A stretch of DNA of 20,812 bases, taken from IMG/VR virus record IMGVR_UViG_2534681662_000008, positions 1-20,812 of that record; one strand, given 5' to 3'. The notes beneath the pieces are model-generated. The model was not told the origin of the DNA, searched no databases, and was given only the letters and a program-made list of their open reading frames with translations. The DNA is from a virus. Lineage: Duplodnaviria; Heunggongvirae; Uroviricota; Caudoviricetes. The translations under genes and the position numbers were made by a program. Below are positions 2,744 to 6,334 of this stretch, in pieces (the stretch's first letter is position 1; each line of letters begins with the position of its first letter).

Positions 2744-3136
2744 ATGTCTGAACCCTTATCCGGTTCCGGCACGGCTGCGGCGCTCGGCGGGGCGACGGTG
2801 TACGGGCTGTTTACCGGGACGGATTTCGGGATTGTGTTTGGTGCGTTCGCCGGTGCGTTATTTGTGGCAACGATGCCGCAGGCGCTTTCAGCCTGGCGTG
2901 TGGCGGCGCATTTTCTGGTGTCGTTCATTATCGGCGTGCTGGGGGCAGAGGTTCTGGCGTCCTGGCTGGTAAAGCATACAGGGTTTGACGGTGCACCTGT
3001 CGACGCACTGTGTGCAGTGCTGGTGTCAGTGGTGTCGGTGAAGATTCTGTCGTTCATCCACCAGCAGGATATTGCATCACTGGTGTCCGGTGTGTTCTCC
3101 CGCCTGCGGGGCGGAGGAGGCGGCAATGTTAAGTAA
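2744..3136 (+). CDS. Putative holin (Gly-rich membrane protein with 3 predicted TM helices)
   Basis: ATG 2744 with AGGAGA at 2731-2736; 130 aa. Three hydrophobic segments and a charged C-terminus (SRLRGGGGGNVK). First gene of the lysis cassette, directly upstream of the endolysin. Family not pinned down. Confidence 0.55.
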   Translation: MSEPLSGSGTAAALGGATVYGLFTGTDFGIVFGAFAGALFVATMPQALSAWRVAAHFLVSFIIGVLGAEVLASWLVKHTGFDGAPVDALCAVLVSVVSVKILSFIHQQDIASLVSGVFSRLRGGGGGNVK

Positions 3137-3404
3137 CCTTCCCGGATTGCTGAATGTGGCGTTATGCACGGTTATCGTGCTGACGCTCTTTTTTTATCGT
3201 CGTCGTGACTCCAGACACAAACCGCTGATGTCATGGCTGGCCTGGCTGCTGATGCTGCTGTATGCCTTTGCGCCCCTCAGCTATCTGTGCGGTCGCCCGT
3301 TAGCGGCGAACTGGCTGGCGGTGGGGCTTAATCTGCTGTTCTGCGTGTTGGTGATTCGCGCACGCGGGAACGTTTCAAAAATCTTTGTATTACGAAGGCG
3401 CTGA
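3126..3404 (+). CDS. Second holin or antiholin-like lysis membrane protein (3 predicted TM helices)
   Basis: ATG 3126 with GGAGG at 3113-3117; overlaps the upstream gene by 11 nt; 92 aa. Hydrophobic segments LLNVALCTVIVLTLFFY, LMSWLAWLLMLLYAFAPL and ANWLAVGLNLLFCVLVI, with a basic C-terminal tail. Confidence 0.5.
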   Translation: MLSNLPGLLNVALCTVIVLTLFFYRRRDSRHKPLMSWLAWLLMLLYAFAPLSYLCGRPLAANWLAVGLNLLFCVLVIRARGNVSKIFVLRRR

Positions 3405-3405
3405 T

Positions 3406-3951
3406 ATGAAGTCGAAAGATGAAATTTTTGACGAAGTTCTGGGAAAAGAGGGCGGTTACGTCAATCACCAGGATGATAAAGGCGGACCGACAAAATGGGG
3501 TATTACTGAAAAAGTTGCCCGTGCGCACGGATACCAGGGCGATATGCGTGATCTGACGCGCGGACAGGCGCTGGAAATACTCGAGGCGGACTACTGGTAT
3601 GGACCACGTTTTGACCAGGTGGCAGCGTTATCCCCTGATATTGCCGCAGAGTTGTGTGATACGGGCGTCAACATGGGGCCAGCCGTGGCGTCAAAAATGC
3701 TTCAACGCTGGCTGAACGTTTTCAACCTGCGCGGGAAACTGTATCCGGATATGGATGCAGACGGACGTATCGGGCCGCGTACTCTTAATGCATTACGGGT
3801 ATATCTGAAAAATCGTGGCAGGGATGGAGAGCTGGTAATGCTGACCGCACTGAACTGTACGCAGGGTGACCGCTATCTGGAGCTGGCAGAGAAACGGGAG
3901 GCTAACGAGTCGTTTGTTTACGGCTGGATGAAAGAGCGCGTAGCAGTTTAA
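3406..3951 (+). CDS. Endolysin: GH108-type N-acetylmuramidase domain with a C-terminal peptidoglycan-binding domain
   Basis: ATG 3406 with GAAGG upstream; 181 aa. Contains the GH108 signature EGGYVNHQDDKGGPTKWGIT near the N-terminus, and the C-terminal half fits a PG_binding_3-like domain. Starts 1 nt after the stop of the preceding membrane protein. Confidence 0.85.
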   Translation: MKSKDEIFDEVLGKEGGYVNHQDDKGGPTKWGITEKVARAHGYQGDMRDLTRGQALEILEADYWYGPRFDQVAALSPDIAAELCDTGVNMGPAVASKMLQRWLNVFNLRGKLYPDMDADGRIGPRTLNALRVYLKNRGRDGELVMLTALNCTQGDRYLELAEKREANESFVYGWMKERVAV

Positions 3952-4046
3952 AAACTGACACTGAAGTGCTGAACACCCTCAACTCATGCAGGCTCTTTTT
4001 TGGGGTTACGATGAGCGAAGATAAGGGGGGGCAGCATCAGATAGCA

Positions 4047-4086
4047 AAAACCCCGGCTGCTGGAACAGTCCGGGGTTTTCTGTTTC
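4047..4086 (+). terminator. Strong rho-independent terminator downstream of the endolysin
   Basis: AAAACCCCGG (4047-4056) pairs with CCGGGGTTTT (4070-4079), followed by a TTTCTGTTTCT tract. Confidence 0.65.
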
Positions 4087-4112
4087 TGACCCTGGGTAAG
4101 GCAAAGGAGAAC

Positions 4113-4295
4113 ATGAGGAAGTATAAACTAATTCTGTTGAGGTTGACTATGAAAAACGGCCTTGAATTGAAAGCGCCCGTAACTGATGACATCAGCAGAG
4201 CGGTGGCTTTTGCCATTAAGTGGGTGGCTGTCGGTATCACTGTGTCTCCGATGCTGTATGGGATGGCAAAATTGATCATTGCTGTGAAATCGTAA
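4113..4295 (+). CDS. Small membrane protein (60 aa, C-terminal TM helix), function unknown
   Basis: ATG 4113 with a strong AAGGAG at 4103-4108. MRKYKLILLRLTMKNGLELKAPVTDDISRAVAFAIKWVAVGITVSPMLYGMAKLIIAVKS. An in-frame ATG at 4011 would extend the ORF through the terminator hairpin, which I consider less likely. Confidence 0.45.
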   Translation: MRKYKLILLRLTMKNGLELKAPVTDDISRAVAFAIKWVAVGITVSPMLYGMAKLIIAVKS

Positions 4296-4312
4296 GTGGG
4301 GCAGGGGTAAAT

Positions 4313-4447
4313 ATGTCAGATAGCATTATAAAACTGGCGCGAATTCTCTGTGTGGTTGTTGGCCTTTCATTTTCAGCAATGTTGGTTGCCATTTTCATTT
4401 CCACCACCTGGCGAGTATTGAGCTTATCCGGATTGATTGGTGGATAG
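4313..4447 (+). CDS. Very small single-TM protein (44 aa), function unknown
   Basis: ATG 4313, 18 nt after the previous stop. MSDSIIKLARILCVVVGLSFSAMLVAIFISTTWRVLSLSGLIGG. Weak ribosome-binding site. Coding status rests on tight packing and hydrophobic architecture only. Confidence 0.35.
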   Translation: MSDSIIKLARILCVVVGLSFSAMLVAIFISTTWRVLSLSGLIGG

Positions 4448-4451
4448 TGAG

Positions 4452-4634
4452 ATGAAGCGAAAACACTGGACACACAGAATGCCGCGAACGGCGGCGAAAT
4501 GGGCACTGGTAGCGATACTGGTGCCTTTTTTATTGGTGGGATGCGTCAGCCTGGATAAGGCGCGCCAGCTTTTCGATACAGCTTCTCAGGTCTGCAAAAT
4601 TGTCGACGGTGTCCGGCATTGTATGCAGAACTGA
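4452..4634 (+). CDS. Small predicted lipoprotein (lipobox LLVG-C, mature peptide about 30 aa with 3 further Cys)
   Basis: ATG 4452 (alternative ATG 4479), 5 nt after the previous stop. Basic N-region, hydrophobic core WALVAILVPFLL, lipobox LVGC, mature part CVSLDKARQLFDTASQVCKIVDGVRHCMQN. Not proline-rich like lambda Rz1. Confidence 0.5.
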   Translation: MKRKHWTHRMPRTAAKWALVAILVPFLLVGCVSLDKARQLFDTASQVCKIVDGVRHCMQN

Positions 4635-4805: not shown

Positions 4806-5156
4806 ATGATGGAAACAACAGAAAACAAACCGATTGTAATTGGTGCCGCTACTGTCCCGTTTAAGTTTGAGTTGTCTCAACTGGTGGAGATGCGCATCAG
4901 TGATGAATGGGGTGAGGTTAAAGCTCGCGCGCAGTATGCGGATGGCGAAAACCAGTACTTGATCCACTACAAGGCTGCTGATGGTCGCGCCACAACGGCG
5001 TGGTTTGGTGAGTCAATGCTGGGAGCAACAGAAGATGATCGCCATCCGGGCTGTCCGGTATTTGCCGGTATGAAATTACCGGAAGGTGCAGTTGAACTGC
5101 AGCCGGGGGCGGTGTTCGTAATGACAGACATCATTGATGGTAAACCGCAGTATTAG
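4806..5156 (+). CDS. Hypothetical soluble protein (116 aa), no family recognised
   Basis: ATG 4806 or 4809 with AGGAG at 4798-4802; stop TAG 5154-5156. No TM segments; acidic. Lies between the lysis region and cos. Confidence 0.5.
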   Translation: MMETTENKPIVIGAATVPFKFELSQLVEMRISDEWGEVKARAQYADGENQYLIHYKAADGRATTAWFGESMLGATEDDRHPGCPVFAGMKLPEGAVELQPGAVFVMTDIIDGKPQY

Positions 5157-5785: not shown

Positions 5786-6334
5786 ATGAAGGTTAACAAA
5801 AAGAAGCTCGCGGAAATTTTCAACGTGGATCCACGAACGATTGAACGCTGGCAGTCTCAGGGGCTCTCTTGTGTCTCTGGTGGTAGTAAGGGGGTTGAAT
5901 CTGTATTTGATACCGCCATGGCAATTCAGTGGTATGCGCAGCGCGAAGCCGATATTGAAAACGAAAAACTCCGCAAAGAGACCGAGGATTTGCGTGCGGC
6001 TGCGGAATCATATTTACAACCCGGCACCATTGACTATGAGCGCTACCGACTCACAAAAGCACAGGCTGATGCACAGGAACTGAAAAATGCCCGCGAAGAA
6101 GGGCTGGTACTGGAAACGGAATTGTTTACCTTCATTCTGCAACGTGTGGCACAGGAGATTTCGGGGATACTTGTACGTGTGCCGCTGACATTACAGCGTA
6201 AATATCCGGATATTTCACCGTCACACCTTGATGTGGTGAAAACTGAAATCGCAAAAGCCTCCAACGTTGCAGCTAAAGCTGGTGAGAACGTAGGCGGGGG
6301 GATTGATGATTTCAGACGCACAGAAGGCAGCTAA
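5786..6334 (+). CDS. nu1: Terminase small subunit (lambda Nu1-like)
   Basis: [27 protein letters not shown]...IENEKLRKE...[23 protein letters not shown] is strongly similar to lambda Nu1. 182 aa; its 3' end overlaps the start of A. Confidence 0.9.

Follow-up and report, generated by a model that had tools for sequence, protein, structure and literature searches.

Known lysis systems and the phiP27-type cassette

The lysis cassette analyzed here lies in a 20,812-nucleotide (nt) stretch of phage DNA (IMG/VR record IMGVR_UViG_2534681662_000008, positions 1 to 20,812; hereafter the window), which is the late region of a lambda-like prophage with its lysis module between Q and Nu1. The cassette is of a known and common type that was first sequenced in the Stx2e phage phiP27, and our main subject is the gene of a 60-residue lipoprotein that follows its endolysin gene. 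The closest described systems are phiP27 (NC_003356, L28-L32), phiSTEC1575-Stx2k, and the prophages SerU-LTIIb and Rac-SA53 with LT-II type heat-labile enterotoxin genes, which as a group resemble the window in the same holin pair, the same lipoprotein, a position between Q and the tRNAs on one side and the terminase genes on the other, and the lack of Rz/Rz1. They also differ from it. Both phiP27 and phiSTEC1575 have an M15 L-Ala-D-Glu peptidase where the window has a GH108 muramidase, phiP27 has a minus-strand gene of 90 amino acids (aa) in place of the p60/p44 module of the window, and SerU-LTIIb has the GH108 enzyme but LT-IIb toxin genes instead of the lipoprotein.

Spanins with an inner-membrane component (i-spanin) plus a component of the outer membrane (o-spanin) provide a second comparison. 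The window lipoprotein resembles Rz1 of lambda Rz/Rz1 in its slot directly after the endolysin and in being a small, predicted outer-membrane-type lipoprotein with extra cysteines. It departs from the Rz1 type in that its mature part of 30 aa is predicted to be helical and amphipathic, not Pro-rich and unstructured, and the combined length is too short for the periplasm. Phages mEp390 and HK639 have a holin pair of the same two Pfam families as the window, with a 91-aa i-spanin and an o-spanin of ∼50 aa (phrog_1026/phrog_1275) in the same slot. Klebsiella phage Seifer combines the same holin families and the GH108 type with a 128-aa protein bearing a transmembrane domain (TMD) and then an 87-aa o-spanin. 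Compared with the spanins of lambda, mEp390, HK639, and Seifer, the window has no i-spanin partner, and its lipoprotein shows no similarity to any Rz1 family.

Single-gene disruption of the outer membrane is known from phages without Rz/Rz1, namely, by the disruptin gp28 of phiKT and the unimolecular spanin (u-spanin) gp11 of T1. Like gp28, the window lipoprotein is predicted to be an amphipathic helical peptide, but gp28 is strongly cationic and nonlipidated, whereas the window protein has a charge of +1 and a lipobox. T1 gp11 extends to the inner membrane through a C-terminal TMD, and the window lipoprotein has no such domain. Other recent work has shown that lysis cassettes can conceal additional small membrane factors, such as Lcc6 of LambdaSo, as well as nonspanin disruptors such as gp28.

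Colicin lysis proteins have mature lipoproteins of 28 residues that are Lol-sorted to the outer membrane and activate phospholipase A, and a terminator immediately upstream of the gene restricts their expression (PMC2896534). These proteins, together with the bacteriocin release proteins, are like the window lipoprotein in being prolipoproteins of ∼45 to 60 aa with a mature part of ∼28 to 30 aa and an LVGC-type lipobox, and they act alone to permeabilize the envelope. There is no sequence homology between them, however, and the window gene lies in a phage late operon after the endolysin rather than in a colicin operon, with the terminator-like hairpin within the gene instead of before it. By this comparison of layout and size, the colicin lysis proteins would be the closest functional analogy for the window lipoprotein.

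The window cassette has no Rz/Rz1-type spanin, but its spanin slot is occupied by a conserved lipoprotein of 60 residues. Judging from sequence comparisons across loci, we lean toward a reading in which the outer-membrane step of this phiP27-type cassette would be carried out by the stand-alone small lipoprotein rather than by an Rz/Rz1 complex. An earlier note on this DNA had implied that the spanin position was empty. This does not hold, since the slot contains the lipoprotein gene, whose phiP27 homologue (90% aa identity) has already been catalogued as an o-spanin and which is syntenic with endolysin genes across Escherichia, Salmonella, and Yersinia. The features of the cassette are as follows.

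2744-3136, plus strand: membrane protein of 130 aa, Phage_holin_8 (PF16931, 7.7e-22; phrog_198 "holin," 1.8e-42), with the Shine-Dalgarno (SD) sequence AGGAGA upstream
3126-3404, plus strand: membrane protein of 92 aa, Phage_holin_3_7 (PF05449, 2.9e-21; phrog_217 "holin," 2.2e-37), overlapping the preceding gene by 11 nt
3406-3951, plus strand: soluble GH108 muramidase endolysin with PG_binding_3, TtsA/Sen1395-like, 181 aa (PF05838, 6e-26; PF09374, 4e-26; PHROG endolysin)
4452-4634, plus strand: prolipoprotein of 60 aa, candidate outer-membrane disruption factor (lipobox LVGC, Cys31 at 4542-4544; phrog_7528, function unknown)
4501-4531, plus strand: conserved terminator-like hairpin (stem region 4501-4526) and then a U-run, in the signal-peptide codons of the lipoprotein

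The spanin search and the lipoprotein gene

We scanned six frames from every start codon for open reading frames (ORFs) with an N-terminal TMD and at least 45 residues after it. The scan yielded no credible i-spanin-shaped ORF in the window and no i-spanin-like gene in the complete phiP27 and phiSTEC1575-Stx2k genomes. The same scan recovered Rz/Rz1 pairs or i-spanins in five control loci (GER2, PhiR5_2, mEp390, Seifer, and L158), and we thus regard it as sensitive enough. Further, no protein of the region matched an Rz or Rz1 family in Pfam, PHROG, or NCBIfam. These results agree with the earlier note, which had reported no i-spanin architecture in any frame and no recognizable Rz/Rz1 spanin. 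The note had allowed for an embedded or overlapping spanin pair that it might have missed, and scans for lipoboxes and TMDs in every frame and from every start gave none.

The only published assignment for this type of lipoprotein is that of its phiP27 homologue, listed as the o-spanin of a "separated" two-component spanin whose combined periplasmic length of 62 residues is the shortest in a survey of 677 genomes (Kongari et al. 2018, PMC6139136). The ORF called as the i-spanin (NC_003356 20348-20542; 4265-4459 in our copy of the locus, L001) has a TTG start, belongs to no PHROG family, is antisense to a well-formed 90-aa gene of phrog_36812 (5e-20), and has no counterpart in the window. On these grounds the two-component assignment looks unsafe and the i-spanin call is probably spurious, whereas the lipoprotein is real. 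The record would therefore need correction.

The ORF at 4452-4634 is the sole credible lipobox ORF in the window. Its product (MKRKHWTHRMPRTAAKWALVAILVPFLLVG-C-VSLDKARQLFDTASQVCKIVDGVRHCMQN) has a basic n-region, a hydrophobic core, and the lipobox, and Val at position +2 provides no inner-membrane retention signal. The mature part of 30 residues would be amphipathic if helical (hydrophobic moment, 1.5 to 1.9, versus 0.70 in shuffles), no hydrophobic segment occurs past residue 31, and the family alignment shows two further invariant Cys residues in the mature part. Met1 is invariant in the family and position 10 is M, T, V, or I. The ratio of nonsynonymous to synonymous polymorphism (pN/pS) was 0.24 across 69 alleles, which indicates purifying selection. 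A Pfam search of this gene found no family at an E value of ≤1, and remote homology searches (Pfam, NCBIfam, PHROG, and a profile search of 1.84 billion protein representatives) returned only the lipoprotein family itself, with 21 representatives in the profile search. As a side observation, the Prokaryotic Genome Annotation Pipeline (PGAP) often omits the gene or starts it at Met10, giving a protein of 51 aa (at 4479 instead of 4452; the same occurs in loci L002 and L175), and this amounts to an annotation gap.

When set against known classes, the protein has the predicted marks of an o-spanin, being a small lipoprotein with a lipobox and no retention signal within a lysis cassette. It lacks homology to the Rz/Rz1 family, an i-spanin to go with it in the window and in the two complete phage genomes, and, with 30 mature residues, a combined periplasmic length that would connect both membranes. 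As a u-spanin of the T1 gp11 type it has the lipobox but not the C-terminal TMD, and as a disruptin of the phiKT gp28 type it has the amphipathic character but also the low charge and the lipoprotein signal. Size and lipobox agree with the colicin lysis proteins, but the hidden Markov model for that family (Pfam Lysis_col) gave no match.

To describe the distribution of the gene, we used 165 loci from IMG/VR centered on the lipoprotein or Holin_8, annotated records of phages and E. coli, and additional loci for distant members, and we counted synteny over the 136 nonidentical loci with enough upstream sequence. The lipoprotein gene was downstream of an endolysin gene in every one of these (136/136), and it usually abutted either the endolysin gene or inserted small genes. 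Of the loci with direct abutment, 58 had M15, 3 had GH108, and 2 had CHAP. The commonest form, found in 60 loci, is Holin_8, Holin_3_7, M15 peptidase, and lipoprotein in that order, with a last gap of ∼15 nt. For instance, the M15 form recurs in Salmonella with a gap of 15 nt to the lipoprotein gene, and in Yersinia kristensenii the start of the lipoprotein gene overlaps the GH108 stop by 4 nt. Distant members, of the same architecture and ∼60% identity, follow an M15 or CHAP endolysin behind a lambda-S-type holin (PF05106), and no i-spanin was found there. The companions of the lipoprotein thus comprise three unrelated endolysin types (M15, GH108, and CHAP) and two holin sets (Holin_8 with Holin_3_7 and lambda-S-type PF05106), and this speaks against a function tied to a single holin or endolysin. 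An endolysin-specific inhibitor or immunity protein was also considered and is unlikely, since the lipoprotein is found with all three enzyme types.

The family is restricted to Enterobacterales (155 protein clusters), with members in Escherichia, Salmonella, Yersinia, Citrobacter, and Cronobacter, and the gene was present in 316 of 5,426 complete E. coli genomes, so that ∼6% of these hold cassettes of this type. Among Holin_8-centered loci with at least 2.5 kb of downstream sequence, 64 of 70 had the lipoprotein; the exceptions were deletions, frameshifted copies, and LT-II toxin genes instead. Three copies were found beside other lysis cassettes, and all were decayed: those of GER2 (three in-frame stops) and L158 (N-terminally truncated) are next to Rz/Rz1, and that of strain EC12 is truncated and beside a lambda-type holin and a GH24 endolysin. 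Two minor observations concern individual loci. In E. coli and Yersinia kristensenii, LT-II type enterotoxin genes were seen downstream of such cassettes (L160, 7332-8550; L166, 7988-9140; L005, 5219-6368), and in two of these three loci they replace the lipoprotein. Further, PP818812.1 (L007), deposited as "Actinobacillus phage vB_Apl-pPE4," has an Escherichia-type cassette and lipoprotein with 85 to 92% aa identity, and its stated host looks doubtful.

The hairpin inside the lipoprotein gene is the best terminator-like site of the region. It is nearly identical at the nucleotide level in Yersinia and in the members of ∼60% identity, while its flanks diverge. Over 56 alleles, 98.2% of stem cells remain paired; a covariation test on the same 56 alleles was not significant. 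At synonymous or third-codon sites, variation in the stem and T-run is eight times lower than in the rest of the gene (1.2/56 versus 9.9/56; P = 0.0009), and the codons ATA, GTA, and TTT at these positions are invariant or nearly so. Among these observations, it is only the synonymous-site contrast that supports a putative constraint at the RNA or DNA level. The hairpin fits tight control of lipoprotein expression. Moreover, translational coupling to the endolysin and the internal terminator-like hairpin suggest that the gene is expressed with the late lysis genes and is not an autonomous moron.

A proposed outer-membrane step and its alternatives

We propose that, in this cassette, Q-modified RNA polymerase would read through the terminators, after which the holin-family pair would build up in the inner membrane until, at a set time, it would open holes. 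The soluble GH108/PG_binding_3 muramidase would then exit via these holes and degrade the murein, and the outer membrane would be destabilized by the 4452-4634 lipoprotein without a dedicated inner-membrane partner. The first three steps draw on family membership and on general knowledge of lambdoid lysis. For the fourth step, we infer from synteny, modularity, and selection that the lipoprotein would be located in the outer membrane, would disrupt it, and would be independent of a partner. This makes the lipoprotein the best candidate for outer-membrane breakage by these common E. coli prophages. Set against the searchable literature, the new element would be an outer-membrane component that is a lone tiny lipoprotein common to several otherwise different cassettes; a literature search for orphan or lone (partnerless) o-spanins found nothing relevant.

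Only tentatively do we go further and suggest that the lipoprotein may represent another class of disruptor beside two-component spanins, u-spanins, and disruptin. Such a protein would be a lone lipoprotein of ∼30 residues that does not span the periplasm, that perhaps acts as colicin lysis proteins do (by phospholipase A activation or perturbation of the inner leaflet), and that is gated by a terminator in its own signal-peptide codons. The matter bears on the question of how the outer membrane is breached by "spanin-less" phages that infect Gram-negative hosts, for which the candidate is here one gene of 183 bp, in a host with easy genetics. Because toxin-converting phages carry such cassettes, which lie beside stx2e and stx2k and upstream of LT-II genes, the lysis step would also be the toxin-release step.

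It is important to note that several observations weigh against a stand-alone role in outer-membrane disruption. The mature part has a net charge of +1 only, unlike the cationic disruptin, and its 30 residues are too short to span the periplasm and are not Pro-rich like those of typical o-spanins. Searches of Pfam, PHROG, and NCBIfam detected no homology to Rz1, u-spanins, disruptin, or colicin lysis proteins, and the AlphaFold2 model is a single helix of low confidence (predicted local distance difference test score, 66.8), which we did not use for fold searches. The TMD and lipobox calls come from simple hydropathy rules and not from dedicated predictors. Most of the loci come from closely related E. 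coli prophages, and part of the synteny may therefore reflect shared ancestry. Approximately 9% of the Holin_8 cassettes have no lipoprotein or a frameshifted copy, and the gene is thus dispensable at least in resident prophages. Finally, the cases of decay beside another cassette number only three.

Given these points, the cassette could be truly spanin-less. The lipoprotein would then serve another function, such as superinfection exclusion, modification of the envelope, release of toxin, or the timing of lysis, and the outer membrane would rupture passively (by shear or low divalent cations) or by some other factor. The mature peptide is indeed unlike any known lysis protein, and in some cassettes the gene is missing or LT-II toxin genes stand at its position. 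In lambda, a further lipoprotein gene, bor, adjoins Rz. Salmonella type 10 secretion system (T10SS) modules, which derive from holin-muramidase cassettes, function without spanins, and for ∼13% of the phages that infect Gram-negative hosts, no spanin could be identified (Kongari et al. 2018, PMC6139136). We nevertheless think this explanation rather unlikely. The lipoprotein gene is coupled to the endolysin within the late operon, with an internal terminator and no promoter of its own detected, unlike the morons expressed in lysogens. Across genera, the gene is found with three endolysin types and two holin sets, it occupies the position that is the spanin slot of related cassettes, and the copies beside Rz/Rz1 have decayed.

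Another possibility is that the lipoprotein is the o-spanin of a miniature two-component spanin whose inner-membrane partner has gone unrecognized, be it the 44-aa protein, the 60-aa protein, a holin-family protein, a host protein, or the uncleaved lipoprotein precursor. Rz1 is disulfide-linked, and the two extra invariant cysteines of the lipoprotein recall this. The 44-aa protein has an N-terminal TMD and its gene ends 4 nt before the lipoprotein start. The listing of phiP27 as a "separated" two-component system also speaks for a partner, and Kongari et al. note that their criteria miss unconventional i-spanin topologies (PMC6139136). We hold this to be quite improbable. The i-spanin listed for phiP27 is antisense to the phrog_36812 gene and is absent from the window, p44 and p60 are missing from many lipoprotein loci and, in Stx phages, accompany an intact Rz/Rz1, and the holins vary by locus (PF05106 versus PF16931 and PF05449). 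Moreover, the two complete phage genomes contain no i-spanin-like ORF, and 30 + 14 periplasmic residues are insufficient to bridge the envelope. It is far less probable that the lipoprotein is a degenerate remnant, that is, a functionless o-spanin left over in a defective prophage after loss of an ancestral Rz/Rz1. Many loci are resident prophages, and some copies of the gene are frameshifted or truncated. A leftover gene would not be expected to show the purifying selection seen over 69 intact alleles or the conservation as far as Yersinia and the ∼60%-identical members; phiP27 and phiSTEC1575-Stx2k, with the same arrangement, were deposited as complete phage genomes, and the structural genes of the window are intact ORFs.

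Holins, endolysin, and neighboring genes

The holin and endolysin genes at 2744-3951 are the first genes of a lambda-type late operon. The earlier note had described two overlapping membrane proteins of 130 and 92 aa with three TMDs each and had suggested a holin plus an antiholin or second holin, and the structural part of this is borne out. The ORFs and their 11-nt overlap are real, and hydropathy gives three strong hydrophobic segments in both proteins, with an additional weak Gly/Ala-rich N-terminal segment in the longer one. Both clearly belong to their families, the 130-aa protein to Phage_holin_8 (78.1 bits; cutoff, 26.4) and the 92-aa protein, which has a basic C-terminal tail (RARGNVSKIFVLRRR), to Phage_holin_3_7 (75.7 bits; cutoff, 25.4). 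These two families travel as a pair, labeled "hypothetical Holin-antiholin" in the Seifer record, and by family membership the two proteins are probably a holin and an antiholin or coholin. The holin genes have 94% DNA identity to those of phiP27, and terminator-like hairpins at 2661-2718 directly precede the 130-aa gene. A literature search on these holin families found no experimental paper, and a profile search of genome contigs with the Holin_3_7 alignment led to one locus only and added nothing. Reassignment of one of the membrane proteins as an i-spanin, which the earlier note had considered, was rejected: both proteins lack a periplasmic domain, normal two-component spanins also occur in distant phages that have this holin pair, and the lipoprotein occurs behind lambda-S-type holin cassettes.

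The endolysin gene, whose span (start 3406, stop 3951) had been given correctly, begins one base after the stop of the 92-aa holin gene. That its product is a GH108 muramidase with a peptidoglycan-binding domain, and not an enzyme of the lambda R type, is supported by Pfam matches above the gathering scores for both domains and by matches in the PDB to 6V3Z (Sen1395; E value, 2.5e-108) and 6V40 (2.8e-85). A match to the NCBIfam model "holin-associated N-acetylmuramidase" (2e-18) fell below the cutoff of that model. The EGGY motif is at residues 15 to 18, and the N terminus is hydrophilic, without a signal or signal-anchor-release (SAR) segment. The protein thus has all the features of GH108/TtsA-like holin-dependent muramidases (catalytic domain, EGGY, PG_binding_3, and no secretion signal), and without a hydrophobic N terminus it needs a hole-forming holin. 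The Salmonella muramidases TtsA and Sen1395 (6V40 and 6V3Z) share this architecture and holin dependence, and the type 10 secretion modules likewise have no canonical spanin. The gene of the window enzyme, however, belongs to a complete phage late operon that also includes packaging and head/tail genes, a context that points to lytic release and not to nonlytic secretion.

A strong terminator and three tiny genes had been described after the endolysin as a single block. All of these elements exist (the genes at 4113-4295, 4313-4447, and 4452-4634), but they are two things, an inserted module and the native lipoprotein gene. The module consists of the following features.

4037-4089, plus strand: strong intrinsic-terminator hairpin at the 5' end of the module (free energy, −28.5 kcal/mol; z = −5.06)
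4113-4295, plus strand: p60, accessory protein of 60 aa with a C-terminal hydrophobic anchor, function unknown (phrog_1115, 1.9e-32)
4313-4447, plus strand: p44, accessory protein of 44 aa with a single TMD, function unknown (phrog_4906, 6.6e-19)

The hairpin lies ∼95 nt past the endolysin stop, and none of 200 shuffles was as stable. It is also conserved in phiSTEC1575 and GER2. The start of p60 has the SD sequence AAGGAG 3 nt before it, and a longer ORF (4011-4295) matches phrog_1115 at 3.3e-44. PhiR5_2 and GER2 have homologues of p60 between R and Rz, and p44, which in PhiR5_2 is likewise located between these two genes, was found by tblastn in 276 phage records, mostly of Stx-converting phages. 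Compared with the Yersinia and M15-type arrangements, the window has an insertion of ∼500 nt (3944-4451) between endolysin and lipoprotein, within which 4043-4411 (hairpin included) is 82% identical to the PhiR5_2 stretch between R and Rz. Because the homologous module is followed by Rz in PhiR5_2 and by the lipoprotein in the window, the same mobile module appears to precede either Rz/Rz1 or the lipoprotein, depending on the lineage. From these alignments, the stretch with the terminator, p60, and p44 (4037-4447) is best read as an inserted accessory module outside the core mechanism. As i-spanin partners, p44 and p60 were rejected as a general explanation; both are missing from 60 of the 136 lipoprotein loci, and they coexist with Rz/Rz1 in Stx phages.

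The remaining annotated features of the lysis region's surroundings are these.

272-667: antiterminator Q (PF06530)
931-1536: ORF6N gene
1834-1987: tRNA-Thr and tRNA-Gly
5789-6334: Nu1 (PF07471)

Downstream of Nu1 are the gpA terminase gene and the head/tail genes, up to the tape-measure gene. Between the lipoprotein and terminase genes, 4806-5156 encodes a soluble 116-aa protein of phrog_1935 (1.4e-67; function not known); the gene is often found at this place and has stop codons in several loci. Upstream of the cassette, the ∼750 nt from the tRNAs to the first holin gene (1990-2740) have no convincing ORF and contain terminator-like hairpins at 2351-2370, 2661-2676, and 2703-2718. Since stx2e fills the corresponding slot of phiP27, this stretch resembles an unoccupied toxin-cargo site. 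Between Q and the ORF6N gene, Rfam matches above the gathering score identify an isrK Hfq-binding small RNA (708-784; 71 bits) and a C4 antisense RNA (812-896; 78 bits), a layout that resembles the immunity or antirepressor control region of P1 and Gifsy.

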